Sequence record: PQ724394.1
Origin: a phage
Strand: one strand, 5' to 3'
DNA length: 64,000 nucleotides
The notes beneath the pieces were generated by a model. That model worked only from the letters and a program-made list of their open reading frames with translations, made no database searches and was not told the DNA's origin. A program made the position numbers and the translations under genes. Positions 1 through 14,616 of this stretch are shown here, in pieces (the first letter of the stretch is position 1; every line of letters begins with the position of its first letter).

Positions 1-2
1 AA

Positions 3-212
3 TTTAAATCACACGAACCATTCCAAACATTTGGTCCTGTTGATAGTGTATTACAATCCCTTTACCTTGGGGACGATGTACCAGATTTTCTGGATATGCC
101 TGCCTTTGTTGCTACATGGGCCGACGATATAACTTCTACTGTAGCTATCCCTGGTCCTAATGGTCCTATTAAAGGATTGCTTAAAATCATGGATATCTTA
201 AATGAAGAATGA
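3..212 (+). CDS. 28: 3' end of a gene entering from upstream; baseplate hub distal subunit (gp28-like) by position
   Basis: Open frame from window edge to TGA at 210-212 (..GPNGPIKGLLKIMDILNEE*); lies directly upstream of gene 29 as in T4. Synteny only. Confidence 0.4.
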   Translation, partial: FKSHEPFQTFGPVDSVLQSLYLGDDVPDFLDMPAFVATWADDITSTVAIPGPNGPIKGLLKIMDILNEE

Positions 213-1938
213 ATCTAATCAGAATAGTTTTCGTCGCAATAAACTGATTGAAGAAATGGCTCCTCAGCGTCGTGCTGAGGCGCTAGCCCAAACCCAGAAC
301 GACGAATTAGGAAATATAACAGAAGCTTTATCAGAAACCCAGGCGGCGTCTGAATTGCTCTCTGAAGTTGTTGAAACAAAGTCTAATCAGATTATTAATT
401 CTATAGACAGAGTAGATAAAAGTGTTCAAGATGTTGTCGCCGGAACAGAATTAACAGCCGAAGCTATATCAGAACAAACCCAACAATCTAAAGCTCTTTC
501 GGATGCCTTAAACGAAAAGATTAATAAGCTTTCTAATATGTTGGAGGCTAAATTCTCTGGTATTTCTATTCCGCCGGAAGGGAGCTCATTAAAGGTTATT
601 GAAGACTCTATTCCAGAAGAACCTAAGGCTGAAACTCCTAAAGTCCCGGCAGTTATTGAAGATATTCTTCCGCCTGAAGATAATAAACCTGACGCTGAAT
701 TTGTACCAGAGCCTCCTAAAAATTCAAATGAAGGTAAAGAAGGTGATAAGTCTTCTCTTTCTGATAAAATCGAAGCCCTTACAAAAATAACCGAAAAAGG
801 ATTTAAAGCCTCTGTGGGTGTGGCTGATAGAATTTCAGGTATGCTTTTTAAGTATACTATTACTGCTGCTGCAGAAGCCGCTAAACTGGCTGCAGGCCTA
901 GCCCTTTTAATATTTGGTATAGATGCTATTCGTGTATACTTCCAATATTTCATGGACCAATTTAATGAAGGATGGAAAAAATTTAACGATAAGTTTAAAG
1001 AGTGGGGACCCGTACTTGAAGGCTTAATGACCTGGGCCAAGAATGCTGAAGCTATGTTTAGCGAAAGAAATTGGCTAGGTCTGGCAGAAGCTATTATTCG
1101 CGGTATGGTTAATCTTACCAAAAATATGGCACAACTGCTAATGCTCGGTATTTCTAAATTGATTTCTGCTATTTTAAGTAAAATACCAGGTATGGGTGAT
1201 TTGGCTGAAAACGTAGAGGCATCAGCTTTAATGTCGTATCAACAAAATACTGGAGCCACTTTAGATGACGAAGACCAGACTAAAATAGCCAAGTACCATG
1301 ATAGACGTTCAGCTGAGGCTTTAGAAACAGCCGAGAAAATGAATAAGAAGTATAAGGATAAACCTGAGCTTATAAACCAGGCAGAGAAATACGGTAATCT
1401 TACTAAAGAACAAGCCGACCAATTACGCGCTGGTGGAATTGATACAAGCTTCCGTGACCTCCCTGAAGAAGAACGTTTAGAGTATTTTAAGAAACGTGAT
1501 AAAGCCCAGGCTGATATTATTCGTTTAACTCAAACCGCCGATAATATAATGAAGCCTGATTCTAAAGATATCGAAAATGCCAAGGCATTTAAAGCGGATA
1601 TAGAGAAACAATTGGCTGACCCTATTATGGCTAAAGGTGGAGCACCTAAGGACCTTAATATTCAGCAATTACTTGATAAGATGAATAAATCTTTAGAGAA
1701 ATTTAATGAAGCTGAAAAGCCTAAACCTGCTTCTGTAGCGGAATCTCCTGAAAATACCCAGGTTAAAAAGGTTGACGAGCAAATGAGAGCAAAGGAAAAT
1801 GCTAAATATAGTCAGCAAGCTCCAACTCAAATAAATCAGCAAACGAATATCAAGAAAACGAGTAAGACCAGTTATAATTTACCACCACAGTCTTCCACTC
1901 CTGCTCCTGGTATGCGTCAAGCTACTAAAGTTAATTAG
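202..1938 (+). CDS. 29: Baseplate hub subunit / tail length determinator (gp29-like)
   Basis: 578 aa ORF, T4 gp29-like length, position between 28 and 48; overlaps upstream stop. Confidence 0.75.
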   Translation: MKNESNQNSFRRNKLIEEMAPQRRAEALAQTQNDELGNITEALSETQAASELLSEVVETKSNQIINSIDRVDKSVQDVVAGTELTAEAISEQTQQSKALSDALNEKINKLSNMLEAKFSGISIPPEGSSLKVIEDSIPEEPKAETPKVPAVIEDILPPEDNKPDAEFVPEPPKNSNEGKEGDKSSLSDKIEALTKITEKGFKASVGVADRISGMLFKYTITAAAEAAKLAAGLALLIFGIDAIRVYFQYFMDQFNEGWKKFNDKFKEWGPVLEGLMTWAKNAEAMFSERNWLGLAEAIIRGMVNLTKNMAQLLMLGISKLISAILSKIPGMGDLAENVEASALMSYQQNTGATLDDEDQTKIAKYHDRRSAEALETAEKMNKKYKDKPELINQAEKYGNLTKEQADQLRAGGIDTSFRDLPEEERLEYFKKRDKAQADIIRLTQTADNIMKPDSKDIENAKAFKADIEKQLADPIMAKGGAPKDLNIQQLLDKMNKSLEKFNEAEKPKPASVAESPENTQVKKVDEQMRAKENAKYSQQAPTQINQQTNIKKTSKTSYNLPPQSSTPAPGMRQATKVN

Positions 1939-1940
1939 GA

Positions 1941-3035
1941 TTGATAATGAAAGTAAAAGAAATTGACATTGACGTAGCCTCCTTATTTAAAGGAGGTTCA
2001 AAAACCTCCGCGGGCCAATCTAAAGCTAAACCAGCCCAAACCACGGTAACTGCCCAGTATCCAGCCGAAAGGGCCTCGGGCAATGATACCTCTACAGATA
2101 TGGTGTTAAACGATTTATATAAAAATGGATTACTTTTTACGGCATATAATTTTAGCTCTCGCGTATCACCTGATTTACGTAACGACCGCTCGAGCCAAAT
2201 GACTAAAAAGTTTTCAAAAGCCGCTAGTAAACTTACTGGTAATACCGGTGGGTTCAGCGCGGTTAAAAACTTGTTTAGTAACAACTCTAAAGGAGTTAAA
2301 TTTGATAGCCAGGCTTTAGCCAATATTTTGCTCCCACGTTCTAAATCTGATGTTGATTCGGTTACCCATAAATTTAATGATGTAGGCGAATCATTAATTA
2401 CTAAAGGTGGTGGTACTGCTACAGGTATTTTGAGTAACGTTGCCAGTACTGCTGTATTTGGCGCATTGGAATCTGTAACTAACGGTGTAATGGCCGATTC
2501 TGGTGAGCAAATATACACCACCGCTCGTAGTATGTATGCAGGGCCTGATAACCGTACTAAGGTATTCACTTGGGAAATGACCCCTAGAAACGCCCAAGAC
2601 CTTATTCAGATTATTAAAATATACGAAATCTTTAATTACTATTCTTATGGCGAAACAGGCAACTCTGCCTTTGCCGGTGAATTAAAAGAGAAGATTGATA
2701 CATGGTACCGTTCCACATTTAAAAAAGAAGCTATTGATAACTTTGACGGCAAGCTATTAGGAGAAGGTATCACAAGTTTCCTTTCTAATGTTATTGTGGT
2801 AAGTAACCCAACTATTTGGTATATTCGAAACTTTGGTAATACAAGTTCATATGACGGACGTGAAGATATTTTCGGACCGTGCCAAATCCAAAGTATACGA
2901 TTTGATAAAACTCCCGACGGACATTTTAATGGTTTGGCTATTGCTCCTAACTTACCATCCACGTTTAGTTTAGAAGTTACTTTCCGTGAAATCATTACTT
3001 TGAACCGTGGCTCACTTTATACGGAAGGATTCTAA
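1941..3035 (+). CDS. 48: Baseplate tail tube cap (gp48-like)
   Basis: 364 aa, same length as T4 gp48; synteny 29-48-54. Confidence 0.8.
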   Translation: MIMKVKEIDIDVASLFKGGSKTSAGQSKAKPAQTTVTAQYPAERASGNDTSTDMVLNDLYKNGLLFTAYNFSSRVSPDLRNDRSSQMTKKFSKAASKLTGNTGGFSAVKNLFSNNSKGVKFDSQALANILLPRSKSDVDSVTHKFNDVGESLITKGGGTATGILSNVASTAVFGALESVTNGVMADSGEQIYTTARSMYAGPDNRTKVFTWEMTPRNAQDLIQIIKIYEIFNYYSYGETGNSAFAGELKEKIDTWYRSTFKKEAIDNFDGKLLGEGITSFLSNVIVVSNPTIWYIRNFGNTSSYDGREDIFGPCQIQSIRFDKTPDGHFNGLAIAPNLPSTFSLEVTFREIITLNRGSLYTEGF

Positions 3036-3988
3036 TGTATACTTTACAAGAATTTCAAAACCAGGCAATTAATATTGACCTACAAAGGAATAACCTGTTT
3101 AGTGTAGTATTTGCTACAGTTCCTTCTTCTAAATCCCAAGCGCTCCTCGACCAGTTCGGTGGAGCTTTATTTAACAATATCCCGTTGAATACCGATTTGT
3201 TTGGAATTACCCAAGGAGATTTAACCCAAGGTGTTACGACATTAGTGACAGCGGGCACTCAGAAGTTGATTCGTAAGTCCGGCATAAGTAAATATCTGAT
3301 TGGAGCTATGTCATCCAGGGTTGTGCAGAGCTTACTAGGTGAGTTTGAAGTCGGGACTTATCTTATGGATTTTTTCAATATGGCTTATCCTACGGCAGGT
3401 CTTTTAGTCCATGCAGTTAAAATTCCGGATAATACTTTGAACTATGAAATGGATTTGAACCACAACTCGCCTAATATCAAAATTACCGGAAGAGAATATT
3501 CCCCATTGGTATTAAGCTTCCGTATGGATTCTGAAGCTGCTAACTACCGTGCTTTTAATGATTGGGTCAATAGTGTCCAAGACCCTATTACACAATTAAG
3601 AGCATTGCCTGAAGATGTTGAAGCTGACATCCAAGTCAACCTTCATTCTCGTAATGGATTGCCACATACGGTGGTAATGCTTAATGGATGTGTTCCTGTT
3701 AGTGTTTCATCGCCGGAATTATCCTATGATGGTGATAACCAAATTGCTTCGTTTGATGTTACATTTGCTTATAGAAGTGTGCAGACAGGTGCAGTTGGTA
3801 AACAAGCTGCTTATGAATGGCTGGAAGATAAAGTCCTTAAAGGCGTAGCAGGTATAAGTGAGAGTAACTCATTAAGTGCTTCTGTAGCTAAATTAAGCCG
3901 ACTTTCAGGAGCTTCTAGTGGATTGACCGGATTGGTTAATACATTTGGTGGGCGTGCTATTAATAATGGAATATCCAGGTTGTTATAA
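3035..3988 (+). CDS. 54: Baseplate tail tube initiator (gp54-like)
   Basis: 317 aa; start overlaps gene 48 stop; synteny. Confidence 0.8.
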   Translation: MYTLQEFQNQAINIDLQRNNLFSVVFATVPSSKSQALLDQFGGALFNNIPLNTDLFGITQGDLTQGVTTLVTAGTQKLIRKSGISKYLIGAMSSRVVQSLLGEFEVGTYLMDFFNMAYPTAGLLVHAVKIPDNTLNYEMDLNHNSPNIKITGREYSPLVLSFRMDSEAANYRAFNDWVNSVQDPITQLRALPEDVEADIQVNLHSRNGLPHTVVMLNGCVPVSVSSPELSYDGDNQIASFDVTFAYRSVQTGAVGKQAAYEWLEDKVLKGVAGISESNSLSASVAKLSRLSGASSGLTGLVNTFGGRAINNGISRLL

Positions 3989-3994
3989 CAAAAA

Positions 3995-4014
3995 AGGAGA
4001 GCTTACGCTCTCCT
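3995..4014. terminator. Bidirectional hairpin terminator between convergent gene 54 and ORF 4023-4313
   Basis: Perfect inverted repeat AGGAGAGC-ttac-GCTCTCCT, T-run on one side. Confidence 0.6.
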
Positions 4015-4022
4015 TTAGGGGT

Positions 4023-4313
4023 TTATTTACGGAACGAGATAAAACCTGCGGCGGTCATTAATGGCTGCTTTTTAACAAAGACCGTGATAGAAATAGGAGC
4101 TTCAGATTCAAGCTGGCCGGTTACTACACCATTAAAGATATTTTCAGTTTGTTCGGGTTGTGAAAAATTTTCAACCGGGCGTAAGTCAAACTGTTTGTCT
4201 TTGCCGAAAACTCGACGTAATTCATTACCGACTGCACTGTCGAACTCTTCAGAAGCAGGGATAACGTTTTCAACTACCAGCTCTTGACCATTAAAACGGA
4301 ATGCAGATTTCAT
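4023..4313 (-). CDS. Hypothetical protein (96 aa) downstream of alt
   Basis: ORF preceded by GAGGAG RBS and a GTTTAC / TACTAT early-promoter-like cassette at about 4330-4370. Confidence 0.5.
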   Translation of the reverse strand: MKSAFRFNGQELVVENVIPASEEFDSAVGNELRRVFGKDKQFDLRPVENFSQPEQTENIFNGVVTGQLESEAPISITVFVKKQPLMTAAGFISFRK

Positions 4314-4370
4314 AATGTTCTCCTCATGTTTGTGTAAGGTAATAGTACCACATCCTTGTGGCGTTGTAAA

Positions 4371-6494
4371 CTACATTTTGAATTTATTTGATAAAGAAGA
4401 GATGTCCAAAGATGCAGCAAGGATTTCCATAGCCTCATTACTTTCTGAAACAGATTCTGAAACTAGGAATTCTTTAAACCCATTCATCAATTTAACTTCA
4501 CCGGTTTCCATCAGATGGTCGCCATCGTAAACGGATTCGCTGAGTTCTGAAGGAGATGTCACTGTAGCTTCCATAAGGTATTTGTGAGATACTCTATCAT
4601 TCATAGCAAAAGCCGCTACTTTATCAACCTTCAACAATAACCCGCGCGGAAGGATAATTTCCGCTTCTTCGGCATATTCTGTAAGGTCGCCAGGAGCGAT
4701 AACTTTAACTGCTTCAGCACCTCGAATAACCATACCAATTTCAGCAATCCTGTCTGCAGGGCCTTCAGGTGCAATTGGATTACCAAACTCGTCTTCTTCC
4801 CATTCTACCTCTTCGTCATCGACTTCACCTACGTCAGATGAACTACCACTGGCTAATTTAAACAACTCATCAGCGGAGGATAAAGAACCTTCATCACCGA
4901 CAAAAACTGCTTGGTTGTCGAGGGCCATATAATTTTTACCAAATTCGCCAAAGATATTAGGCTTTAATGAAGCGGACACAAAGTTCTTAAAGTAAAAGGT
5001 TTTGTTATCAATATTATGGCGCAGAATTTTGTATGGTAAATCCTGACCACGATACAAAATAGTACCCTTAGGAAGTTTAATACCCTTGGTAAATGCCGAG
5101 TCTAAATCCTTAATCAATTTAATAGCTGTTGTATTGTTTTCGGATTCAGGTTTACCTAAAAGGAATAAGTTCATAGGAGCATATTCAGCCGCACAATATT
5201 CAATAATGGCATTACTTTCGTCTTTGGTCAAGCCCTTAGGTTTAATGAGCTCGCCTGAATAAGCATATGCATCGCTAATAGAATCGTTAATCAGTTTATA
5301 AACGGCTTCCATAGCGAAAGCAATTCGAGATGCTTTCTCTGAAGGAGACCCCTGAAAACGGGCACTCAGGTTATTAACAATTCTCTTAATAATATCCAGA
5401 CTATTGGTAGTATTGATTTGAGAAAGACCGCTTAAAAGTCTATCGACTTCCGTATTAAAAAATGCCATATTATTAGAGTAAATTTCAAACCCTTGTTTAT
5501 CTCTATTAGCATAATTTAGTTTAAATTTACTATCAGTCATTAAAGCGTGCGTGAGAGCAATGGTGTATCTAAAGTTGGCAAGGTCCTCACTCTTAGATTT
5601 AAACTGAGAGGCCTGTCGCATTTTAGTAATAGAACCTTTTTTAAAGTTCTGGCTAATCTGCTCAATACCTTCGTTCTCAGGGCCTTCGGCCGAGTGAACA
5701 GGGACAGAAGCTTCAAACTCGTTATAAATCTGCAATTCTTTAGGTGATAAAGTTTCGGGTTCGGCAGTAGAATACTGCGCCGCTGCAGCCATACGACGGG
5801 AAATCTTAGTACGAGAAATAACAGCCTTATCGGTACGTTTCTCTTCAACCTGTGCAATAGATGCCGCTACGGCTTCTACTTTACTTACGGCCTGGCCGGT
5901 TTTCTTAGAAACATAAACTTCACCGACTTTAGACTCAACCTTGGTATAAAGGTCTGCATCAATTTCAGGCATACCCTTGATATCTTCGATATTAGAACCA
6001 CGACGTACTAAAAGAACGTAGGTATGTTTACCACTAAACTGGAACATATCATCGACAACTTTAAACTTACCACCGGTACGTGCCATCACCAAACGAGCTA
6101 ATACACGCTGAACGGTAGGACCCTTACCTTTCATTTTCTTGGTAGGGAAACGGAACAAAACTGCATCCATTTTAAGTTTGTTTACTTGTTCGTATACGGT
6201 ATCGAAAATAGTATTCAGTGTACCAAGTGGGTCAGAACCAAGCCCACCTTTGAGTTCAGCCGGAGCACCCTTGCTAGACAAACTCATTAAAATAATATGA
6301 ACGTATTTGTCGCCAGGCTTAACCATTTTAATAGCGTCTCCTTGAGACGCATAAGATACCATACGAGCAACCAGGTTATCATTACCTGGTGCTTGGATAG
6401 AGAAAATCTGTGGGATACCTGAGCCTGGCTTAAGATTTGTTACTGGATAGTTTTTAGCTGAATCACTATCAAAAACTTCGTTTAAATTTTCCAT
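4371..6494 (-). CDS. alt: Alt-type ADP-ribosyltransferase, paralog A (707 aa)
   Basis: N-terminal region conserved with the neighbouring paralog (LVARMVSYAS.GDAIK...LKGGLG); C-terminal R (YRGQ), S-x-S (FVSASL) and E-x-E (EEAEIILPRGL) motifs; position next to DNA ligase as T4 alt. Confidence 0.85.
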   Translation of the reverse strand: MENLNEVFDSDSAKNYPVTNLKPGSGIPQIFSIQAPGNDNLVARMVSYASQGDAIKMVKPGDKYVHIILMSLSSKGAPAELKGGLGSDPLGTLNTIFDTVYEQVNKLKMDAVLFRFPTKKMKGKGPTVQRVLARLVMARTGGKFKVVDDMFQFSGKHTYVLLVRRGSNIEDIKGMPEIDADLYTKVESKVGEVYVSKKTGQAVSKVEAVAASIAQVEEKRTDKAVISRTKISRRMAAAAQYSTAEPETLSPKELQIYNEFEASVPVHSAEGPENEGIEQISQNFKKGSITKMRQASQFKSKSEDLANFRYTIALTHALMTDSKFKLNYANRDKQGFEIYSNNMAFFNTEVDRLLSGLSQINTTNSLDIIKRIVNNLSARFQGSPSEKASRIAFAMEAVYKLINDSISDAYAYSGELIKPKGLTKDESNAIIEYCAAEYAPMNLFLLGKPESENNTTAIKLIKDLDSAFTKGIKLPKGTILYRGQDLPYKILRHNIDNKTFYFKNFVSASLKPNIFGEFGKNYMALDNQAVFVGDEGSLSSADELFKLASGSSSDVGEVDDEEVEWEEDEFGNPIAPEGPADRIAEIGMVIRGAEAVKVIAPGDLTEYAEEAEIILPRGLLLKVDKVAAFAMNDRVSHKYLMEATVTSPSELSESVYDGDHLMETGEVKLMNGFKEFLVSESVSESNEAMEILAASLDISSLSNKFKM

Positions 6495-6497
6495 TAT

Positions 6498-8582
6498 TTA
6501 CCCTTGGATGAATTTTTCTGGTATGTCATAGAGGTCTATGCATGAAGCCAAAAGTGGCAGTACGTCAAACCGTGTAGATTTAACAAATGAATCAAAAGAT
6601 ACAGGGCTTTCGGAAGTATCGAAGTCATCTTGGTATACAACCAATTCACCAGTTTCCATTAGTACGTCACCATCATACACCACAGATTCTTGAAGCTCAT
6701 CTGTGGTCATAACTTCGGCTTGAACGAGTTTTGTATTACTAGATGTTGTTCCGTCATTATTAGAGGCATCGGTTATTTTATTAACTTTGACCATCAATCC
6801 ACGCGGTAGAATAACTTCAGCTTCTGTTGCTATTCCGAGACTTCCTGGATATACAACATTAACTTTATGGGCTCCATCAATTGCCCATCCTATTTGAACT
6901 TTAACGTAATCAGGGTTTTCTTTATACGCTCTTATTTCATTAGGATTAATGGTTATTCCTTCTTCATTTTTATCGACTGTCAATTCATTGCGAACTTCCG
7001 GTTCTAAAAGACCGACACCCGCGTGTGTAACACCAAAACGACCAAAAATGATAGGAGTCAGTGAAGTAGATACAAAATTTCTAAAATAAAATACCTTATT
7101 TTTAACTAGTGCTTCGTATATAGGAGCAGTCATACTTTGAGCACGATAAACTGTAATGCCTTCTGGTATACGGTCACCATTTTCAAAAGCTGAATCAAGA
7201 TTATTAACAGCAGATTCAATAGACCTTTCATTCATTACATCATAGTTCTGAGGATTATAACGTCCTAAAAGAAGATTATTGATGTCGGTATAACCTGAGC
7301 CGCAGTATTCTCTGATGCCGCGCTTTTGTGATGGGGTGTATTTAGAACCATCGCGAGCAATAGTAATATCGACCATAATACCACCGCCTACACCAGCAAA
7401 ACTATATACACGTTTTTTAATGAACTTGGTCTTGGCTGCTTTCCACTTGGACTCGGTTAATTCATTCCAGACGTCGTCAGGCTGACCTTTACGAGTTTTG
7501 TTATGTATAGCCAGCCATTCGCCTTTATATTCTTCAAAAACTGTATTAATAACAGAGGCATACTTTTCTAGAGCTTTAACAGATGTCAAAGGTTCGTTTT
7601 TGATGGCTGTAAGAATTCTCTCTTTAATTTTCTCTTGGATTTCACCTATACCGTGAAGAGGAAACATTTTATATTCATAATGCAACTCTTCAGCAGTGCC
7701 TTCAGCTACTATATTAGCAACTTTATTTTTAGCCGCAGGAGAATTGTTATTGGTGACCATTTCCTGTGCCTCAGGGATTAATGGAGCTGTTGCAGGTTTA
7801 TTAAAATCTGCTGCAGTAGCTTCATATTTCTTAAACAGTTCACTTTCATTACGATAAGATTCTAAAGACTGACTTGCTGCAATAGCGCGACGAGAAATCT
7901 TAGTCTTGGTTATAACCATTTTATCAGTGCGACGTTCTTCAACTTTAGCAATACTGCCGGCAATAGCAGTTTCTTTAGTAACCTGCACACCTTCTTTTTT
8001 AGAAATATAAACTTCACCAACATCAGAATCTACCTTAGTATATAATTCGGCATTAATTCCTGGCATACCTTTGATATCTTCAATATCAGCTTGTTTACGA
8101 ACTACTAGGATATAAGTATGTTTACCGGTAAATTGGTACATGGCTGGAACTACTTTAAAACGTCCACCGGTTTTCTGTGCTACCAAACGTTGGATAATCC
8201 GTTGGACGATAGGTCCTTGTCCTTTCATTTTCTTGGTTGGAAAACGGAACATCACAGCATCCATACGAAGCTTTTTAACTTGTTCGAATACTACGTCGAA
8301 AATGGTATTAATAGCATCAATAGGAGTAGGGCCTAAGCCGCCTTTAAGTTCGGCTGGAGAACCTTTAGCTGAAAGGCTCATAAGGATGACGTGGGCGTAT
8401 TTATCACCTAATTTAACCTGTTTAATAGCATCGCCTTCAGAGGCATAAGATACCATACGGGCCACTAATTGGGATTCGGCGTCGCCAATCTTCCAAATCT
8501 GCGGTACTTTAAGTTTTGGGTTTAAGTTTACAGTAGGCAGGGTGCCTTCAGACTCAAACACTTCATTTAATTGTTCGGTCAT
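6498..8582 (-). CDS. alt: Alt-type ADP-ribosyltransferase, paralog B (694 aa)
   Basis: Same architecture as paralog A; YRAQ, FVSTSL, EAEVILPRGL motifs; AAAGAGGA RBS upstream. Confidence 0.85.
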   Translation of the reverse strand: MTEQLNEVFESEGTLPTVNLNPKLKVPQIWKIGDAESQLVARMVSYASEGDAIKQVKLGDKYAHVILMSLSAKGSPAELKGGLGPTPIDAINTIFDVVFEQVKKLRMDAVMFRFPTKKMKGQGPIVQRIIQRLVAQKTGGRFKVVPAMYQFTGKHTYILVVRKQADIEDIKGMPGINAELYTKVDSDVGEVYISKKEGVQVTKETAIAGSIAKVEERRTDKMVITKTKISRRAIAASQSLESYRNESELFKKYEATAADFNKPATAPLIPEAQEMVTNNNSPAAKNKVANIVAEGTAEELHYEYKMFPLHGIGEIQEKIKERILTAIKNEPLTSVKALEKYASVINTVFEEYKGEWLAIHNKTRKGQPDDVWNELTESKWKAAKTKFIKKRVYSFAGVGGGIMVDITIARDGSKYTPSQKRGIREYCGSGYTDINNLLLGRYNPQNYDVMNERSIESAVNNLDSAFENGDRIPEGITVYRAQSMTAPIYEALVKNKVFYFRNFVSTSLTPIIFGRFGVTHAGVGLLEPEVRNELTVDKNEEGITINPNEIRAYKENPDYVKVQIGWAIDGAHKVNVVYPGSLGIATEAEVILPRGLMVKVNKITDASNNDGTTSSNTKLVQAEVMTTDELQESVVYDGDVLMETGELVVYQDDFDTSESPVSFDSFVKSTRFDVLPLLASCIDLYDIPEKFIQG

Positions 8583-8618
8583 AATAATTCCTCTTTAATA
8601 ACCGTATTTATGCCATAA

Positions 8619-8634
8619 AAGGCCCGAAGGCCTT
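8619..8634 (-). terminator. UUCG-tetraloop hairpin (on transcript GGCCUUCGGGCC) followed by UUUUAU
   Basis: Inverted repeat AAGGCC-cgaa-GGCCTT between small ORF stop and alt-B start. Confidence 0.55.
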
Positions 8635-8845
8635 AAAGTGGTAGCAACGTACGATATACTTCGAATGTCGGGCCTTTTTCATAGCCATCAAACATGTCTT
8701 TAAAATCGGCAAAAGCTATTTCATCCTCAAACTCTAGGATGATTTGAGAGGCCGCGGTGGTATTTGTATTTGTTACAACAATTGTTTCTAAATAAGCTTT
8801 CATATTATAGTCCAGTTTGAGACCAATCACCAAATACATCTTCAA
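8633..8845 (-). CDS. Hypothetical small protein (70 aa; may start at internal ATG 8803)
   Basis: ORF between ligase and alt; track start overlaps ligase 3' end, internal ATG follows ligase stop by 1 nt. Confidence 0.35.
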   Translation of the reverse strand: MKMYLVIGLKLDYNMKAYLETIVVTNTNTTAASQIILEFEDEIAFADFKDMFDGYEKGPTFEVYRTLLPL

Positions 8846-10310
8846 ATGTATCAGCTTCTGTTTTATCGAAACGCCAACCTTTAATAGTTGGAAGGAAAAT
8901 ACCTACAGTATCAGTACGTCCTTTAGAATGAACCCAACCATTACATTCACAGTCAGCAATACGTCCAATCAACTTACCTTCACGGGCTTGTTTCATAAGA
9001 AGTTCACGGTCTAAATCAGGACGGTTTTCTAATGGGATTAATACCTTTTTACCGGATTTATCTTTCTTATGGGTGGTATCTTTAAAACCGGAACCACAGT
9101 CAGTTGTAATACGACGGCACCGTGATACTAACTCAATACCACCAATCTTGTTAGGGTCTTTAGAGTGTTCATAATAACCTACTACTTCTAAAGCAATATC
9201 GATTACTTCTTTGAACTTTATAAGATTCTTAGAACGGCGGTTCTCCCAGTAGGAGTCCATGTTCTTAAGGATAATACCTTCCAAGCGTTTGCCGATATAT
9301 TTCTTATAAACTGCTTTAGCTTCGTCCAGGTTATTAACCCACTGCGTTTCGATAGGCTCGACACGTGTAAAACCTTCAGCCATTTGTACTAATGCCGCTA
9401 AACGAACATCGTATTTTTGACCTTTAATTTTGCCTTCAGAATAAACTTCATCCAATGGAACATAGTCCCACGCCTGTAATACCATGCCATCAGCTTCAGC
9501 TGGAGTAATAGTTCCTTGAAGAGCCTTGTTAGCCAAGCCATTTGACGTAGAACGATCGGCTACGGTTTGGAACTCCTTAGCCTTACTTAATTCAGGAAGT
9601 TCTTCATCAAACATACTAAACAAATCATTAGATGCTTTAGGTTCTACTTTAGGTGTATGGTAAACTAATTCACCATCAATCATAACACCATTAGGATGAC
9701 GCTGACGAGCTTCTTCGGTCATTTTAATAAGTTCGGCCGCAAGCTTAGTAAGCCCTTGATATTCGTTCCCACCACGAGTAAGGAATGTTACCCCATCGTT
9801 ACGAACTTCAGCAAAACAACGGGCACCGTCAGCTTTTAATTGGGCGAACGCTGGCCATTTAATATTTTTCTTAATCAGGGCTTCGTCATAAGAACTAGCC
9901 AACATTTGAGGTTGTTCAGGGATTAAACCTTTCCAAACCTTGTTAGCAATAGAAATCGATGCACCACATTCAAGGTCACGCATCATTACTCGACGTAATA
10001 CCTCAGCGTCAGGACCCTTAGCATCGGCAATAATTTGGGCAAGCTCTTCAATAGCCGCATTACCTGTAATCTTACGGGTGGCTAATGTGAACTCAGCGAA
10101 ATCAAGAAGGTCTTCAAGTGTAATCATACCAAAGGATTGAGACGTAAATCCAGGTTCAGGCCACTTTTTAATACCGTAGTTTAAACGACGGGTATAAGCC
10201 ATACGATATACACGTTTCAGAAGCTCGTTATCCTTTTCACGAGCAATAATAGCTTCTTTAGCTTTAGTAGAATCAATAGAAGCAATTTCGTTTAAAATAT
10301 CTAAAATCAT
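8805..10310 (-). CDS. 30: ATP-dependent DNA ligase (gp30)
   Basis: N-terminus MILDILNEIASIDSTK.. and KADGARCF adenylation motif match T4 DNA ligase; 501 aa. Confidence 0.95.
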   Translation of the reverse strand: MILDILNEIASIDSTKAKEAIIAREKDNELLKRVYRMAYTRRLNYGIKKWPEPGFTSQSFGMITLEDLLDFAEFTLATRKITGNAAIEELAQIIADAKGPDAEVLRRVMMRDLECGASISIANKVWKGLIPEQPQMLASSYDEALIKKNIKWPAFAQLKADGARCFAEVRNDGVTFLTRGGNEYQGLTKLAAELIKMTEEARQRHPNGVMIDGELVYHTPKVEPKASNDLFSMFDEELPELSKAKEFQTVADRSTSNGLANKALQGTITPAEADGMVLQAWDYVPLDEVYSEGKIKGQKYDVRLAALVQMAEGFTRVEPIETQWVNNLDEAKAVYKKYIGKRLEGIILKNMDSYWENRRSKNLIKFKEVIDIALEVVGYYEHSKDPNKIGGIELVSRCRRITTDCGSGFKDTTHKKDKSGKKVLIPLENRPDLDRELLMKQAREGKLIGRIADCECNGWVHSKGRTDTVGIFLPTIKGWRFDKTEADTFEDVFGDWSQTGL

Positions 10311-10630
10311 TTTACCGTCCTTACAGTTTGTGTACTTCTATTATAAGCTACTTCATCTAAAAGCTCATTTAAAGTTTTGTGATACGATATAATACGCTTA
10401 TCTTTAATATCATATTCAGTAACATACATAAATCCACGCCGAACACATTGGATAAAGATATCTTCATCTTTGGCTTGGAAATATACAGGGTTCAATCGAA
10501 GGAATTGTCTAACGTTTCCATAATCATGGGATTTAGGGATTCCATCAGTAATAGTATGAACAACAAACATATTAACCTCGTGCAATCCATTCAACGGCTG
10601 CATTATTACGAAGGGATTCGATTGCTGCAA
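10307..10630 (-). CDS. Hypothetical protein (107 aa; start uncertain)
   Basis: ORF overlapping 3' end of upstream gene by 59 nt; true start probably an internal Met. Confidence 0.35.
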   Translation of the reverse strand: MQQSNPFVIMQPLNGLHEVNMFVVHTITDGIPKSHDYGNVRQFLRLNPVYFQAKDEDIFIQCVRRGFMYVTEYDIKDKRIISYHKTLNELLDEVAYNRSTQTVRTVK

Positions 10631-11210
10631 TATCGTCCCATGAATTAACCTTTACGGCTAAATTAGGTTTAAAGTCGCGTTCACCACGGGCTAACCAATA
10701 AACTTGGATATCCATGAGAATATTAGATGCAGCATCACAGTGGTGAGCCAAATCGTCAACATAAAACTTAATGCGTTTACCGTATGTATTTTTAGCTCTT
10801 ATGAACAGGTCTTCTTTTGATTCTGAATGACCACACATCAGAATCTCCTTGAATGCACCAGGGAACAAAGCATTCAAATTGAATTGTCTATTCAGCAGAG
10901 CATCAATTGAGTCGCCTAGCGCAGTCACGGCTACAAAATCGAAGTCTTTTTTGAGCTTGTTGATGTGTTTTAATGCATCCATGTAAGGGGACAGATAACG
11001 AATAAAATCTGACTGGTTATATTTCTCGATTAAACGTGCGCCTAATTCGTCGTCACAATTAAACAGTTCGCCTGGAGATAAGAAACGTTCGTCCTGAATC
11101 ATATTCAAAATATGTTCTAAAGGCAAATTATATTTCTGTGCGAAATAAGGCAAGCCGGACTGCCAACTTAAACATACTCCATCGATATCTGTTAAGATAA
11201 CTGGTTTCAT
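10572..11210 (-). CDS. HAD-superfamily hydrolase-like protein (212 aa)
   Basis: HAD motif I VILTDIDGV near N-terminus, downstream YVDDL acidic motif. Confidence 0.55.
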   Translation of the reverse strand: MKPVILTDIDGVCLSWQSGLPYFAQKYNLPLEHILNMIQDERFLSPGELFNCDDELGARLIEKYNQSDFIRYLSPYMDALKHINKLKKDFDFVAVTALGDSIDALLNRQFNLNALFPGAFKEILMCGHSESKEDLFIRAKNTYGKRIKFYVDDLAHHCDAASNILMDIQVYWLARGERDFKPNLAVKVNSWDDIAAIESLRNNAAVEWIARG

Positions 11211-11674
11211 AATAAATCTCTCAATTTGTTTAGGATGTCGATAAACTCTTTTTCAGTTAGTATTGTATCACATTCTTTGAGGTGGCTTGCCATTGAATGC
11301 TTTAAAACCTTACCTTTAGTGGCTTGTAAAGCTTCTCGGAATCCTTTGTTCTGGAGTGCTGCTTCAAAATACGCACTTTCGTAAAGCTCTTTCCATGCTT
11401 CGGAATATCTTGAAAACGGGGTTCCAAGCCAGAACAACGTGCCACGGTCCTGAGCTCTAGCATAAGCTCGTCCAGCTTTTTGTGCGTCTAACCCGGACAT
11501 CCTAAATATACGTCTTTGTTGTTCAACACTTTTCACCTTACATCCTTGGAGGAATCCTTCGAGTCCACCAAATTGGATACCGTCCATAACGAAAGGCCAT
11601 TTAGCAAAGTTACTTAATGCGCATGATGGCCACGGAAAGTTACTTCTAATTTCTAACTCAGACATCTTTGACAC
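11207..11674 (-). CDS. NADAR/YbiA-like (DUF1768-type) protein (155 aa)
   Basis: LSNFAKWPFVMDGIQF...EGFLQGCKV and LQATKGKVLKHS resemble the YbiA/NADAR signature (FSNFA.WP..DG...EH.FQ..K) as recalled from memory. Confidence 0.5.
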   Translation of the reverse strand: MSKMSELEIRSNFPWPSCALSNFAKWPFVMDGIQFGGLEGFLQGCKVKSVEQQRRIFRMSGLDAQKAGRAYARAQDRGTLFWLGTPFSRYSEAWKELYESAYFEAALQNKGFREALQATKGKVLKHSMASHLKECDTILTEKEFIDILNKLRDLL

Positions 11675-11870
11675 TTATAATCTTGGTAGCGTACCACATA
11701 CCATGGTCCGGTAATCTGGATTTAATTGACCGCCCACGATATGTTTTTCGCATTATAACAGTCTTAATAACATCTTCATCACAAGCATATGGCGGCGATA
11801 AGTCGATAACACGATAAGTCACTTCAACCATTTCTAGGCCAAACAGCTTTTTAAGCCATTTCTTAACCAT
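11658..11870 (-). CDS. Hypothetical protein (70 aa)
   Basis: ORF in 30.x-like accessory block. Confidence 0.4.
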   Translation of the reverse strand: MVKKWLKKLFGLEMVEVTYRVIDLSPPYACDEDVIKTVIMRKTYRGRSIKSRLPDHGMWYATKIISVKDV

Positions 11871-11871
11871 A

Positions 11872-12066
11872 TTATCCTCGCTTCAAACATTTGATTACAG
11901 ATAATTCAGAACCCATACGAACGTCTTCAGTTCCATCGACCCACAGGACGGTGTAGGCTTCTTTAATAGTAGCATTACCTAATTTAAAACCAGGCAAGAC
12001 CTTAGAAATCATTCCAGGAATACCTACACCTTTTAACTGGACGGTTTGTGATAAGAATAGTTGCAT
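11872..12066 (-). CDS. Hypothetical protein (64 aa)
   Basis: ORF in 30.x-like accessory block. Confidence 0.4.
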   Translation of the reverse strand: MQLFLSQTVQLKGVGIPGMISKVLPGFKLGNATIKEAYTVLWVDGTEDVRMGSELSVIKCLKRG

Positions 12067-12353
12067 TAGAACCTCATCTGAAATCCATGTGATTTAACAT
12101 TACCGCCGTAGATGTCAGAAGTATTGACTTCGCGGGCAGCGCTAGGGTCGATGTTAATATCATGGTTGAGCTTAGTGATTGCTAGGGTGTCACGACCATT
12201 GACTGTACGGAATTCTACTGGACAAACCACATCAGCATAAGCCTTAATGGATTCACGAGTAGGCTGTTTGTCGGCAGGAACATCTTTACCTGCCTTAGAG
12301 AAAACAACTTCACAGAAATTTTTACGAGTATCGAAATAAGTGGTCATAAACAT
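12066..12353 (-). CDS. Hypothetical protein (start moved to ATG after hairpin and GAGGA RBS)
   Basis: Track ORF 12066-12386 starts inside a GGAGGC-cgaa-GCCTCC hairpin; the ATG at 12353 has a GAGGA RBS 7 nt upstream. Confidence 0.5.
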   Translation of the reverse strand: MFMTTYFDTRKNFCEVVFSKAGKDVPADKQPTRESIKAYADVVCPVEFRTVNGRDTLAITKLNHDINIDPSAAREVNTSDIYGGNVKSHGFQMRF

Positions 12354-12368
12354 AATATTTTCCTCAAA

Positions 12369-12384
12369 GGAGGCCGAAGCCTCC
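12369..12384 (-). terminator. UUCG-tetraloop hairpin (inter-cistronic)
   Basis: GGAGGC-cgaa-GCCTCC. Confidence 0.5.
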
Positions 12385-12394
12385 ATTTTTAAGA

Positions 12395-12760
12395 TTAGAT
12401 ATCAAATTCATTCAGAACTACATCAAAGATTGCTTCCAGGTGTTCAGGTTTAGCACGGTTGCTCAGGATGTGACGAATCCAGGTTTTAACCAGAAGCTTA
12501 CGATTATCACCGTTCCAGCAAGGATGGGTACCTAAATCACGTTGACGGAAATCATCATCCAAAGCGATTTTAAAAGTAGAACCTTCCATAGTGATTGAAA
12601 CCGTGATACCATTTTCAAAGCGCATATAAACGTAGTTAGGAGTCATGCACTGTTCGATTTCGCACACTGTGCTGTTGTTGTGTTTCCACAGGCAAATAAC
12701 TTCAGAAGAACCAGCAATACCGTTAGAAACATATTTACGTTCGAAGTTGATGTAGTTCAT
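12395..12760 (-). CDS. Hypothetical protein (121 aa)
   Basis: ORF with GGAGA RBS; own early-promoter cassette upstream. Confidence 0.55.
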   Translation of the reverse strand: MNYINFERKYVSNGIAGSSEVICLWKHNNSTVCEIEQCMTPNYVYMRFENGITVSITMEGSTFKIALDDDFRQRDLGTHPCWNGDNRKLLVKTWIRHILSNRAKPEHLEAIFDVVLNEFDI

Positions 12761-12796
12761 TTTATTCTCCAGTTTGTTTTCGTATTATTTGGTACA
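12758..12796. repeat. 39-nt direct repeat copy 1 (5' leader/RBS/start of gene 12395-12760)
   Basis: Identical to 13201-13239. Confidence 0.8.
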
Positions 12797-12830
12797 GGTC
12801 TATAATAACACAACCTGTACCAAAGTAAAC
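12791..12830 (-). promoter_or_regulatory. Early-promoter stem-loop cassette (GTTTAC -35, 17 nt, TATTAT -10; stem GGTACAGG/CCTGTACC)
   Basis: Read on minus strand: GTTTAC at 12830-12825, TATTAT at 12807-12802; -10 sits in loop of an 8-bp inverted repeat. Confidence 0.55.
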
Positions 12831-12834
12831 CGTT

Positions 12835-13203
12835 TTATGCAACTTTAATCCAATTATCTAAATTTAATTCACCTTTGGCTTTCATTTTTTCGATCAGGTC
12901 ATCTGCAGTTATACGACCATTTTGATACCATGTAACATCTTCAGAATAACCAGTTTCTTCATCTTCATAGGTCTTACAACGAATCTTACCGGTTATGATA
13001 GTTTTCAGTTCGTAGGTATCACCGGTAAAAAAGTTTGTTACCAAAATTTTCCAAGAGAAGTCATCAGAAGGACCTTCAGGAGTCATACAACCTACAAATT
13101 CAAATTGTTCTTTGTACAAGCGCCATTGCATCTCTTTAGTTTCAATAGCTTTATAACCGTCGTGGTCTTTACATTTGATATATGAGTTAAGATTGATTTT
13201 CAT
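12835..13203 (-). CDS. Hypothetical protein (122 aa)
   Basis: ORF with GGAGA RBS; own promoter cassette. Confidence 0.55.
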   Translation of the reverse strand: MKINLNSYIKCKDHDGYKAIETKEMQWRLYKEQFEFVGCMTPEGPSDDFSWKILVTNFFTGDTYELKTIITGKIRCKTYEDEETGYSEDVTWYQNGRITADDLIEKMKAKGELNLDNWIKVA

Positions 13204-13239
13204 TTTATTCTCCAGTTTGTTTTCGTATTATTTGGTACA
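13201..13239. repeat. 39-nt direct repeat copy 2 (5' leader/RBS/start of gene 12835-13203)
   Basis: Identical to 12758-12796. Confidence 0.8.
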
Positions 13240-13244
13240 TGTCT

Positions 13245-13273
13245 ATAGTATCATGCCTACCGGAGATGTATAC
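13245..13273 (-). promoter_or_regulatory. Early-promoter-like cassette (GTATAC -35 variant, 17 nt, TACTAT -10)
   Basis: Family member of the repeated cassette; -35 is degenerate. Confidence 0.4.
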
Positions 13274-13299
13274 CCTTTTTTTAAGATTTAGAAACAAAA

Positions 13300-13321
13300 A
13301 TGGGACTCCGAAGAGTCCCAT
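13300..13321 (-). terminator. Rho-independent terminator (UUCG hairpin + U-run) after small ORF 13325-13486
   Basis: ATGGGACTC-cgaa-GAGTCCCAT; on minus transcript followed by UUUUUGUUUC. Confidence 0.65.
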
Positions 13322-13324
13322 AAC

Positions 13325-13486
13325 TTATGCAATAACTTTACCGAAGCAAGCAGCATCTGCACGCAATACTGCACGAGCACGAGCTTGAAGCTTATCAACT
13401 ACCTGATTGATACGCTTGTTAGACGCACGCTTGTAACCAGCGCGTTTAGAGGTTCCGTCAACTACTTTAACTTCTTTCTTAGCCAT
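13325..13486 (-). CDS. Small basic protein (53 aa), not in ORF track
   Basis: ATG at 13486 to TAA at 13325; MAKKEVKVVDGTSKRAGYKRASNKRINQVVDKLQARARAVLRADAACFGKVIA; immediately followed by terminator. RBS weak. Confidence 0.35.
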   Translation of the reverse strand: MAKKEVKVVDGTSKRAGYKRASNKRINQVVDKLQARARAVLRADAACFGKVIA

Positions 13487-13839
13487 TTTTAAATCTCTTA
13501 AATTAGGATGCAGGACTTATTGGCATTGCCTGCGCAAGCCCTCAAGGGGAACATAGGTTTTAGATATTTAACGACAGGATAACCGTAAACCTCGTCATCA
13601 TAGCTCTTATCTGTTGCACACCGTTAGCTTAAAGGTTCCGGGTTCGATTTCTCGAGGATAAGATATATACTGATGGATATATAGGCCTTGAGGCGTACTC
13701 CCGATTGGCCATCACCTCGGGGTAGCATGCACTTGCCGCTATAAAATAACATTCAAGAGGTACACCGTAAAACTGCCGGGGTCTTAAAACTATAATGATT
13801 CGCAAATCATTAATCAGACAGTTCGACGGCTCCTCGATT

Positions 13840-14088
13840 TTACTTCAGGGTAATAATAAAATGACGTACTGCTTTACGAGCTGCTGAAGCCAAAGGCTTA
13901 GCATATTTCAGTTCATCTTTTGCTTCCAATTCAGCGGCCAGAGTAGCCTGAGCAGGATTAAGATGTTTGAAATAACGCAGGATTTCCAGTGCTTCGGCTT
14001 CAACATCAATAGATGCGCCGTAGTTTTCGTGACCGTTGTTCCAAGCGTTGCGTTGCAGTTCAAGAGCGTGATTCAGATGTTTGTTCAT
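13840..14088 (-). CDS. rIII: Lysis inhibition accessory protein rIII-like (82 aa from internal Met)
   Basis: Start taken at the internal Met (MNKHLNHALELQ..) to give 82 aa, T4 rIII length; position next to gene 31. Confidence 0.65.
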   Translation of the reverse strand: MNKHLNHALELQRNAWNNGHENYGASIDVEAEALEILRYFKHLNPAQATLAAELEAKDELKYAKPLASAARKAVRHFIITLK

Positions 14089-14226
14089 TTTAAATTCTCG
14101 ATTCGAGATAAAGATTGGTGGACACGTTCTTCTGAATTTCACTTCCTTTCGGCAAGTCTCTCAGTTGTAGTCCACCGCTTAGGATTCTCCGGTTAACTAA
14201 CTAGTCCGGCAGCCAATCCATATTAT

Positions 14227-14234
14227 TATTTATA
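14227..14234 (-). promoter_or_regulatory. Late-promoter consensus TATAAATA (minus strand)
   Basis: Exact TATAAATA on minus strand just after gene 31 stop, upstream of rIII. Confidence 0.4.
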
Positions 14235-14614: not shown

Positions 14615-14616
14615 TA

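Follow-up and report, generated by a model that had tools for sequence, protein, structure and literature searches.

Two divergent Alt-type ADP-ribosyltransferase genes with a common N-terminal module at the alt locus of a T4-type Dhakavirus

Two adjacent genes coding for Alt-type proteins, AltA and AltB, are present in the genome of a Dhakavirus, a T4-type coliphage with 97% identity to phages NC-G and JS10. They probably constitute a recombining cassette array of old paralogs, from which two R-S-E enzymes are produced late in infection, packaged into the head and injected. Alt is the textbook case of an enzyme that a phage injects along with its DNA. The pair is real but not new: it is ancient, widespread in T4 relatives and found under the names alta/altb in the annotation of JS10 and IME08, which carry the same genes. 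The encoded proteins are 98-99% identical to those of JS10 (99% for AltA and JS10 'alta'), the DNA of the region is 96.7-97.7% identical, and alt paralogs were already noted in a 2006 paper. Within the window, the 64,000-nucleotide stretch of record PQ724394.1 that was analysed, an earlier note had reported two adjacent genes of about 700 amino acids each, and both are found as minus-strand open reading frames with exactly the coordinates listed here:

6498 to 8582, minus strand: AltA, open reading frame of 694 amino acids, upstream gene of the pair, T4 Alt ortholog
4371 to 6494, minus strand: AltB, open reading frame of 707 amino acids, downstream gene, ortholog of the full-length RB68-type Tequatrovirus second copy ('alt.-2')
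6495 to 6497, minus strand: spacer of 3 nt separating the stop codon of AltA from the start codon of AltB
8605 to 8632, minus strand: terminator hairpin GGCCTTCGGGCC with a T-run, followed by CATAAATA, upstream of AltA
4023 to 4313 (within 3993 to 4370), minus strand: alt.-3, the downstream neighbour, 96 amino acids, so annotated in JS10 and T4
4370 to 4342, minus strand: early-type promoter sequence of alt.-3 itself, GTTTACA-17-TACTAT
4016 to 3993, minus strand: terminator sequence closing the alt locus

The locus lies between the DNA ligase gene (30)/alt.1 and alt.-3/gene 54, a position that is conserved in T4, JS10 and RB68. The gap of 3 nt implies that AltA and AltB are co-transcribed and would make translational coupling possible, and neither a strong sigma-70-type promoter nor a terminator was found at the junction of the two genes. 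In T4, the front of alt has the same layout at the same spot, with GGCCTTCGGGCC followed by the late-promoter consensus TATAAATA. The octamer in front of AltA, CATAAATA, differs from this canonical sequence, and by analogy with T4 we regard it as a putative late-type promoter. The upstream terminator and the late-promoter-type octamer are thus shared with T4 alt, as are the locus, the R / S-x-S / E-x-E motif and an architecture of four modules, namely a basic N-domain, a helical middle domain, an ART domain and a short conserved tail:

7863 to 8582, minus strand: AltA N-terminal module, residues 1-240, basic, common to AltB
7368 to 7862, minus strand: AltA middle domain, residues about 241-405; identity 66% with RB68 Alt, 34-35% with T4 Alt, 11% with AltB
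6687 to 7367, minus strand: AltA ART domain, residues about 406-632, PF03496, aligns with iota toxin Ia
7143 to 7145, 7062 to 7070 and 6816 to 6824, minus strand: AltA R480, S505-T-S507 and E587-A-E589, respectively (coordinates verified)
6501 to 6686, minus strand: AltA C-terminal tail after L-Q-E|S
5769 to 6494, minus strand: AltB N-terminal module, residues 1-242, predicted alpha/beta fold, GNAT acetyltransferase-like
5235 to 5768, minus strand: AltB middle domain, residues about 243-420, all-helical, 45% identical to RB68 alt-2
4536 to 5234, minus strand: AltB ART domain, residues about 421-653
5049 to 5051, 4968 to 4976 and 4659 to 4667, minus strand: AltB R482, S507-A-S509 and E610-A-E612, respectively (coordinates verified)
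4749 to 4913, minus strand: AltB acidic insert between STS and ExE, residues about 528-582 (approximately 55 residues)
4374 to 4535, minus strand: AltB C-terminal tail after L-S-E|S, with the family-invariant DGD, G and KF residues

AltA and AltB are homologous, with BLASTP E values of 4e-104 for residues 1-240 and 3e-38 for residues from about 420 to 705. Compared domain by domain, the identity is 65-66% for the N-domain (approximately 240 amino acids), 11-16% for the middle domain and 34-37% for the ART region. Homology of the pair, as proposed in the earlier note, is borne out by these values, but the conserved N-terminal two-thirds that it described shrink to the first third, about 240 residues, and between residues of about 241 and 420 no similarity is detectable. 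Its observation that the sequence around the active site differs agrees with our alignments, in which the stretch from the STS to the ExE motif is diverged and includes the AltB insert. This insert is mostly missing from AltA, T4 Alt and the Tequatrovirus B-type copies, and AltB residues 528-600 contain 19 D/E versus 4 K/R. A structure model was made for AltB only; it shows helices in the middle domain at pLDDT 80-90, predicts disorder at the insert (pLDDT < 50 for residues 517-581) and a disordered linker at residues 654-685, and its low confidence between STS and ExE allows no reading of the geometry of the substrate-facing loops. The N-terminal module of AltA has a pI of 9.65 and a net charge of +11. 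Both proteins carry an L-N-E|V motif near the N-terminus, and the L-x-E|S motif after the ART domain, a putative head-protease site, is invariant in the family; AltB residues E653 and D657-G-D659 are invariant or nearly so across paralogs.

The assignment to the Alt family rests on several searches. PF03496 (ADPrib_exo_Tox; Pfam cut-off 23.4 bits) matches AltA, where it spans residues 379-627, with 122.8 bits and AltB with 64.6 bits, and PHROG 802 ('Alt-like RNA polymerase ADP-ribosyltransferase') matches both proteins end to end (E = 1e-263 and 9e-251, respectively). Alt homologs carry PF26846 (Tevenvirinae_ADPRT) and PF03496 as precomputed domains, and the catalytic domain has the ART fold. 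The Arg, Ser-x-Ser and Glu-x-Glu columns are invariant in all 12 diverse Alt paralogs aligned, and the catalytic Arg (YR) and Glu-x-Glu of iota-toxin Ia and BECa fall in register with them. The triad that had been claimed for both proteins is kept, and neither paralog has lost its catalytic Glu or Arg. This supports the view that both genes encode intact Alt-type R-S-E ADP-ribosyltransferases. Due to the Glu-x-Glu motif and established knowledge of R-S-E enzymes (PMC8120803), both proteins would be expected to act as arginine-type mono-ADP-ribosyltransferases. Purifying selection on both AltA and AltB is strong, with an overall dN/dS of 0.03-0.06.

The individual modules have different histories. 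For the middle and ART domains, the trees follow paralog type across genera (98-100% bootstrap), whereas the N-domain groups by phage genus (99-100% bootstrap), and the domain trees are mutually incongruent (98-100% bootstrap). AltA is the ortholog of T4 Alt, and in the trees of the middle and ART domains it falls with the Alt proteins of T4 and RB68 (97-100% bootstrap). The ART domains of AltA and T4 Alt are 62-63% identical, and the N-domain of AltA is 47% identical to that of T4 Alt (41-47% for the N-domains of the pair). The catalytic cassette of AltA is nevertheless an RB68-type allele and not a T4-type one: its ART domain and that of RB68 Alt agree at 93% of amino acid and 89% of nucleotide positions, versus 58-66% identity for the flanking genes. 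RB68 Alt itself is 99% identical to T4 Alt in the N-domain, 32% in the middle domain and 65% in the ART domain. AltB belongs to a separate paralog lineage and groups with RB68 alt-2 (98-100% bootstrap). Its ortholog is the Tequatrovirus second copy, which is located at the same site downstream of alt, is annotated as 'alt.-2' (RB68) or as a hypothetical protein, and is found at full length in RB68, T6, RB6 and hundreds more Tequatrovirus records. The middle domain, ART domain and tail of AltB are 45%, 57% and 62% identical to their Tequatrovirus orthologs (85-100% bootstrap), and the catalytic residues are alike. The Tequatrovirus protein differs in having a Tequatrovirus-type N-domain (47% identical to that of AltB) and S-T-S, and lacks most of the acidic insert. 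The middle and ART domains of AltB taken together are 50% identical to the RB68 and T6-type second copy over 98% of their length, and at least 80% of this query is covered in 469 phage records.

Copy number also varies. Two- or three-copy alt arrays are present in the Dhakaviruses NC-G, MX01, QL01, WG01, C6 and LQ5; in MX01-type phages, a third copy, distinct from the other two, lies between A and B, whereas the phage studied here has two. The first approximately 180 nt of AltB, coding for its N-terminus, match the middle copy of MX01, which suggests that a crossover inside a three-copy array gave rise to the two-copy form, or vice versa. Single-copy lineages include T4, KAW1E185, Mosigvirus, Jiaodavirus and Karamvirus, and the KAW1E185 gene is an A/B chimera joined at the EAEVILPRG motif. 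The statement that T4 has a single alt is correct but incomplete: its record describes alt.-1/alt.-2 as the remnant of a duplicated alt, and 1.69 kb present in RB68 is missing from T4 at this position. A deletion of approximately 1.7 kb has thus reduced the B copy of T4 to alt.-1/alt.-2. As T4, KAW1E185 and many genera lack the B copy, AltB is dispensable on at least some hosts. Taken together, the alt locus is a mosaic, in which middle and catalytic modules have been exchanged horizontally between genera, and it evolves through cassette exchange and unequal recombination.

The origin of the pair had previously been explained by a local duplication followed by rapid divergence of the catalytic end. 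The genes are indeed arranged in tandem, and their N-domains are closer to each other than to that of T4 Alt. But the synonymous sites of the two N-domains are near saturation (pS 0.69), AltA clusters with the Alt proteins of T4 and RB68, Tequatrovirus phages have a separate ortholog for each paralog, and RB68 repeats the pattern with two N-domains that are 68% identical to each other. A recent transfer of the B-type copy from a Dhakavirus to Tequatrovirus is not suggested by the 45-62% identity of these modules either. A young duplication is therefore very improbable; the RB68 pattern, the domain trees and the pS value point to homogenisation of the N-domain at the genus level or cassette replacement, and the likeness of the N-domains within the pair seems to reflect genus-specific homogenisation or repeated re-duplication. 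Just as improbable is that AltB has lost catalysis or is decaying, and is kept only as a structural or DNA-associated internal head protein. Such a role could be read from S-A-S in place of the usual S-T-S, the long disordered acidic insert within the ART domain, the lower Pfam score, the loss of the second copy in T4 and the degenerate appearance of the rare distant relatives P0082 and P0088. The substituted serine-motif residue lies outside the three triad residues, and the dN/dS of the AltB catalytic domain is 0.01.

A further explanation is that both enzymes modify mostly the same host proteins and that the second copy adds dose or buffers host variation. The like catalytic motifs and N-terminal modules, the many single-copy lineages and the at least 27 targets of T4 Alt alone (PMC8120803) speak for this. 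However, decay, or homogenisation over the full length and not in the N-domain alone, would be the expected fate of a redundant copy, whereas here the middle domains are dissimilar, the ART domains are diverged and each type is separately conserved across genera under strong purifying selection. In addition, three residues ahead of the first catalytic Glu, the AltA/T4 Alt type has Ile or Pro, in contrast to an aromatic residue in B-type copies and the majority of the family. We consider redundancy unlikely, although less so than the two previous explanations. Very different target-facing parts, with unrelated helical middle domains and a diverged STS-ExE region, are supported by the alignments, and it is plausible that AltA and AltB act on different host targets.

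The mechanism we favour, two injected enzymes encoded by a cassette array, is modelled on T4 Alt, a head-packaged, injected NAD+:arginine mono-ADP-ribosyltransferase (gpAlt, UniProt P12726). The T4 protein is present in the prohead core in approximately 40 copies, its N-terminal peptide is cut off by gp21 and it is injected (PMC9958956, PMC5512222); its targets include R265 of RNA polymerase alpha, MazF and EF-Tu (PMC8120803). An Alt homolog has also been detected by mass spectrometry in virions of the Morganella phage MP1 (PMC5384007). By analogy, both copies would be expressed late from one message, starting at the late-type promoter just past the terminator upstream of AltA, and both proteins would enter the prohead core via the common N-terminal module, a putative head-packaging domain. 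The head protease would then trim them at L-x-E sites, and after injection with the DNA they would ADP-ribosylate host proteins. The retention of the N-terminal module and the L-x-E motif in both is as expected of head-packaged, protease-processed proteins. The locus would act as a recombining array of one, two or three copies among relatives, in which middle-plus-ART cassettes are traded between genera and the N-terminal module remains in place. As the ortholog of T4 Alt, AltA probably targets RNA polymerase alpha and other known Alt substrates; the distinct middle domain and substrate-facing loops of AltB suggest a different target set. In the searchable literature, we found no expression, virion or activity data for AltA, AltB or any B-type copy.

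More tentatively, one might speculate that the alt locus of T-even-type phages is a polymorphic injected-effector array, in which a resident, genus-specific N-terminal head loader with a GNAT-like fold receives, by recombination, interchangeable cassettes of a helical targeting domain and an ART, and that AltB is an effector devoted to a host target of its own, such as a defence or translation factor, and not a second RNA polymerase modifier. Nearly all functional work on Alt has been done on T4, a deletion derivative without the second copy, and two or three distinct Alt enzymes are encoded, if not also injected, by hundreds of sequenced T-even relatives, some of which are candidates for therapy. 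The practical gains of the present analysis are modest; among them, AltB, conserved and strongly constrained, emerges as a reasonable candidate for ADP-ribosyl proteomics. A GNAT-like fold of the common N-terminal domain is possible according to the AltB model, in which a loop with the sequence K-M-K-G123-K-G connects a strand and a helix; G123 is invariant. The acetyl-CoA pyrophosphate-binding motif A, (Q/R)-x-x-G-x-(G/A), is expected between beta4 and alpha3, but in the Alt family it starts with K, S, A or L and ends in a variable residue (G, A, S, N, E or D). Neither a Pfam search with the Alt proteins nor a profile search of PDB sequences returned a GNAT match. In a bolder version, the module may bind an acyl-CoA or nucleotide ligand or be catalytic, and Alt would then be a two-enzyme protein.

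Alt shares only 12-25% sequence identity with C3bot, iota Ia, BECa/CPILE-a, CDTa, VIP2, Certhrax and Vis. Unlike the C3-like and binary toxins, it has an extra N-terminal and an extra helical domain, has bacterial targets and is delivered by the phage head instead of a pore-forming B component or a secretion system. The likeness to these toxins lies in the way of working, and no family below the superfamily level is shared. We also considered whether AltB might be a binary-toxin enzymatic component such as iota Ia, CDTa or VIP2, and rejected this: in such components the ART fold is duplicated and its N-terminal copy serves as adaptor for a pore-forming B component, whereas the AltB model has GNAT-like and all-helical domains preceding the ART domain. 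No gene for a binary-toxin B component was found in the neighbourhood of AltA and AltB. Another parallel is injected head cargo with an N-terminal packaging peptide, which likewise combines a conserved packaging determinant with variable cargo, head-protease processing and a recombining locus (PMC3012670, PMC9958956). The packaging part of Alt is a folded domain of approximately 240 residues, in contrast to a peptide of approximately 10 residues in that system. The Alt N-domain occurs in 1202 phage records, which, where annotated, are almost always named Alt or ADP-ribosyltransferase and otherwise hypothetical protein, and its cargo is an ART in all or nearly all cases, with 71 clusters among 1.84 billion representatives, almost all of Alt length.

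The two adjacent genes of about 700 amino acids described in the earlier note are present in the window as two open reading frames on the minus strand, separated by a spacer of 3 nt:

6498..8582, minus strand, AltA, open reading frame of 694 aa
4371..6494, minus strand, AltB, open reading frame of 707 aa
4023..4313, alt.-3, small gene with its own promoter, downstream of AltB

One flank of the pair is formed by alt.1, a small ORF, and the DNA ligase gene (8805..10310), and the other by alt.-3, followed by the baseplate genes 54 and 48. Since the 4.9-kb alt region shares 97.7% identity with phage NC-G and 96.7% with phage JS10, we assign the window to the genus Dhakavirus (Straboviridae, Tevenvirinae). 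The names alta and altb have already been given to the two genes in the records of JS10 and IME08. The pair is real, and it consists of already annotated, widespread and ancient paralogs rather than a novel duplication.

The homology of AltA and AltB is far beyond chance by BLASTP, with 65% identity over residues 1-240 (E = 4e-104) and 34% identity over residues of about 420-705 (E = 3e-38). Between these two regions, at residues of about 241-420, the identity is 11-16% and similarity is not detectable, so that only the N-terminal third is well conserved and not the N-terminal two-thirds, as had been assumed. Both proteins match Pfam PF03496 above threshold and align end-to-end with PHROG 802 ('Alt-like RNA polymerase ADP-ribosyltransferase'); an NCBIfam model for either protein was not found. 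Both paralogs have kept the full catalytic triad (R480, S505-T-S507 and E587-A-E589 in AltA; R482, S507-A-S509 and E610-A-E612 in AltB), as had been noted before, and the alignment shows that neither paralog has lost the catalytic Glu or Arg, a loss that the earlier note had held to be decisive against its reading. Across 12 aligned, diverse Alt paralogs the triad columns do not vary, and the Arg and Glu-x-Glu are in register with the catalytic residues of the iota toxin Ia and BECa. Comparisons within Dhakavirus gave a dN/dS of 0.03-0.06 for AltA, 0.06 for AltB and 0.01 for the ART domain of AltB, the protein identity of which is 100% after rounding in spite of synonymous differences of 16-24%.

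The two copies had been interpreted as a duplication followed by divergence of the catalytic end. This scenario proved to be wrong, as the genes are mosaics with incongruent domain trees. The flanking genes 48, 54, alt.-3 and ligase provide a baseline of 58-66% identity between the window phage and T4 or RB68, a Tequatrovirus. The modules of the Alt proteins, which are the shared N-terminal module of about 240 aa (N-domain), the middle, the catalytic ART domain and the tail, compare as follows:

Identity of Alt modules in pairwise comparisons (alt-2, second copy of RB68)
AltA and RB68 Alt: N-domain 47%, middle 66%, ART 93% (89% nt, dS 0.47), tail 52%
RB68 Alt and T4 Alt: N-domain 99%, middle 32%, ART 65%, tail 93%
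AltB and RB68 alt-2: N-domain 47%, middle 45%, ART 57%, tail 62%
AltA and AltB of the window: N-domain 66%, middle 11%, ART 36%, tail 38%
RB68 Alt and RB68 alt-2: N-domain 68%, middle 16%, ART 34%, tail 46%

The AltA domain compared with RB68 is located as follows:

6687..7367, minus strand, ART domain of AltA, compared with alt of RB68 (L004)

As the neighbouring genes of RB68 and T4 are 95-98% identical, the difference between RB68 Alt and T4 Alt represents a swapped internal cassette. The two N-domains within one genome resemble each other much more than either resembles its ortholog from the other genus, and they cluster by genus in a neighbour-joining tree (99-100% bootstrap), whereas the middle and ART trees cluster by paralog type across genera (98-100% bootstrap), which indicates that the paralog types are older than the genus split. 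Judging from these comparisons, cassettes made up of the middle and ART domains have evidently been exchanged horizontally, both between and within genera. That the N-domain stays specific to the genus would be due either to old gene conversion or to re-duplication and cassette replacement. Recent gene conversion between the N-domains of AltA and AltB was rejected, because synonymous sites between them are almost saturated (pS 0.69); any homogenisation of the N-domain must for the same reason be old.

A second full-length copy is common among relatives of the window phage. In RB68, alt (697 aa) is followed by a copy of 685 aa, which is labelled 'alt.-2'. A tblastn search with the middle and ART part of AltB matched 469 phage records with at least 80% coverage; 44 of these reach at least 80% identity, the two listed among these 44 being Dhakavirus-type phages, with the remainder of the records being mostly copies of about 50% identity in Tequatrovirus-type phages. 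Across 1202 phage records, the N-domain was matched at 1825 places. Tequatrovirus phages, T6 and RB6 among them, typically have two such places, and two or three are found in Dhakavirus; there is one in Jiaodavirus and Karamvirus, as well as in Escherichia phages with a match of about 61% identity, which we take to be Mosigvirus-type. Three alt copies are present in MX01, QL01, WG01, C6 and LQ5. Paralogous duplications of alt have been listed for RB49, 44RR and T4 (Nolan et al., 2006, PMC1524935). A second alt copy is also located at the same locus in the Acinetobacter phage Henu6 (L007 3712..7966) and the Aeromonas phage phiAS4 (L008 2537..5420). In such more distant T4-like phages, annotations often present the second copy as 'split', with two or three ORFs in its place; a frameshift, a sequencing error or a pseudogene could account for this.

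From the arrays compared here, the alt array is seen to change its copy number by unequal recombination. The regions concerned are:

T4 (L003) 5105..5113, joined to RB68 (L004) 3586..5277, deletion junction of T4 from the DNA comparison
vB_EcoM_KAW1E185 (L005) 3256..5313, single alt gene, changing at the EAEVILPRG motif from A-type (as T4 Alt) to B-type (as the second copy of RB68)
6315..6494 of the window, minus strand, first ~180 nt of AltB, compared with the MX01 (L002) copies at 4500..6545 and 2373..4496

The statement that T4 has a single alt gene turned out to be incomplete, as the T4 record describes its alt.-1/alt.-2 remnant as an old duplication of the beginning of alt, and T4 lacks 1.69 kb compared with RB68, corresponding to most of the second alt gene. 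What remains as alt.-1/alt.-2 is the initial ~350 nt of a B-type alt gene, the rest of which is absent; the best-studied phage thus carries a deletion form of the locus. The KAW1E185 gene matches RB68 alt at 82-100% identity as far as the EAEVILPRG catalytic motif and, beyond it, RB68 alt-2 at 86-100%; unequal recombination of tandem paralogs at a conserved motif would be expected to produce such a chimera. Of the first 780 nt of AltB that were compared, the initial ~180 nt match the middle (third) copy of MX01 at 90-98% identity and its B copy at only 67-83%, and from about nt 450 on the B copy is the closer one. Two-copy and three-copy arrays appear to interconvert by crossovers inside the N-domain repeats.

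What can be retained of the earlier interpretation is that two intact enzymes with different target-facing parts are encoded, and AltA and AltB would be likely to differ in their targets. For T4 gpAlt, at least 27 target proteins have been described in total, among them the RNA polymerase alpha subunit (R265), MazF and EF-Tu (PMC8120803). No functional, expression or packaging studies on the second Alt copy were found in the searchable literature. A first AlphaFold model of AltB, based on 9 sequences, was of low quality (pLDDT 54) and its ART domain could not be used, because the N-domain and AltB C-terminal queries had only 3 and 4 matches in a collection of 5.8 billion proteins. A profile search yielded 26 homologs, and a usable second model, built on 27 homologs, reached a pLDDT of 76 and a pTM of 0.70. 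It has four parts, with an alpha/beta N-domain, an all-helical middle domain and, after the ART domain, a disordered linker followed by short helices. Disorder is also predicted for residues 517-581, between STS and ExE. This segment contains an acidic insert, with 19 D/E and 4 K/R counted over residues 528-600, which is largely restricted to AltB of Dhakavirus. The loop before the first catalytic Glu helps substrate recognition in C3 and iota-type toxins; the residue three positions before this Glu is aromatic in B-type copies and most of the family, but Ile or Pro in AltA and T4 Alt. Among the 50 matches listed in a BFVD fold search, all were Alt/ART proteins or unnamed entries, and no other family was indicated.

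The T4 head protease prefers L/I-x-E. An L-N-E|V motif at the start of AltA and AltB and an L-x-E|S motif directly after the ART domain of both, whose Glu is invariant in the family, fit this preference and are putative cleavage sites. The second motif is part of a pattern that is invariant and common to all Alt paralogs and could mark another cleavage site of the head protease or act as a conserved interaction motif:

4374..4544, minus strand, C-terminal tail of AltB, L-x-E|S...Y-D-G-D...G...K-F pattern
6501..6695, minus strand, C-terminal tail of AltA, same pattern

T4 gpAlt is a prohead-core protein present in about 40 copies, from which a small N-terminal peptide is removed by the gp21 protease, and it is injected with the DNA (PMC9958956, PMC5512222). 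With a pI of 9.65 and a net charge of +11, the N-domain common to both proteins is strongly basic, and the ART and tail part is acidic. We infer that both enzymes are brought into the head by the N-domain, which would account for its following the phage lineage while its cargo is exchangeable.

Membership of the N-domain in the GNAT family was rejected, as neither Pfam nor a search of PDB sequences with the N-domain profile gave a GNAT match and the acetyl-CoA motif A is not conserved; a predicted resemblance in fold only is kept as a lead. An exhaustive profile search of 1.84 billion representatives yielded 71 N-domain clusters, almost all of Alt length, when fusions to non-ART cargo were looked for. 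Four metagenomic outliers have an Alt N-domain without a Pfam ART match: P0082 (485 aa) and P0088 (347 aa) resemble degenerate ARTs, the former with Lys where the Tyr-Arg motif is expected and the latter without Glu-x-Glu; P0083 (541 aa) lacks a Pfam ART match in its C-terminal half; and P0081 (1142 aa) is very long, with two N-domain-like stretches. As a check on the N-domain as a delivery module, these outliers are too thin a basis for polymorphic non-ART cargo.

The terminator hairpin GGCCTTCGGGCC upstream of AltA is the same as that preceding T4 alt, but the octamer that follows it at the same position differs, being CATAAATA in the window and TATAAATA, the late-promoter consensus, in T4:

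8605..8612, octamer CATAAATA, upstream of AltA

An exact TATAAATA was not found near the alt locus, and the 64-kb window contains 4 such octamers, fewer than the 6.75 expected from shuffles. Neither tRNA genes nor Rfam families at gathering thresholds were found in the 64-kb window (1..64000). As there is no notable sigma-70-like promoter between AltA and AltB, the simplest reading is that the two genes would be transcribed together late in infection. For the downstream gene alt.-3, T4 mutants with a C-terminal extension of Alt.-3 are known to escape the CmdTAC defence system (PMC11618068). In the window, alt.-3 is preceded by a T4-early-type promoter (GTTTACA-17-TACTAT) at 4342..4370 and is thus probably expressed separately from the alt genes.
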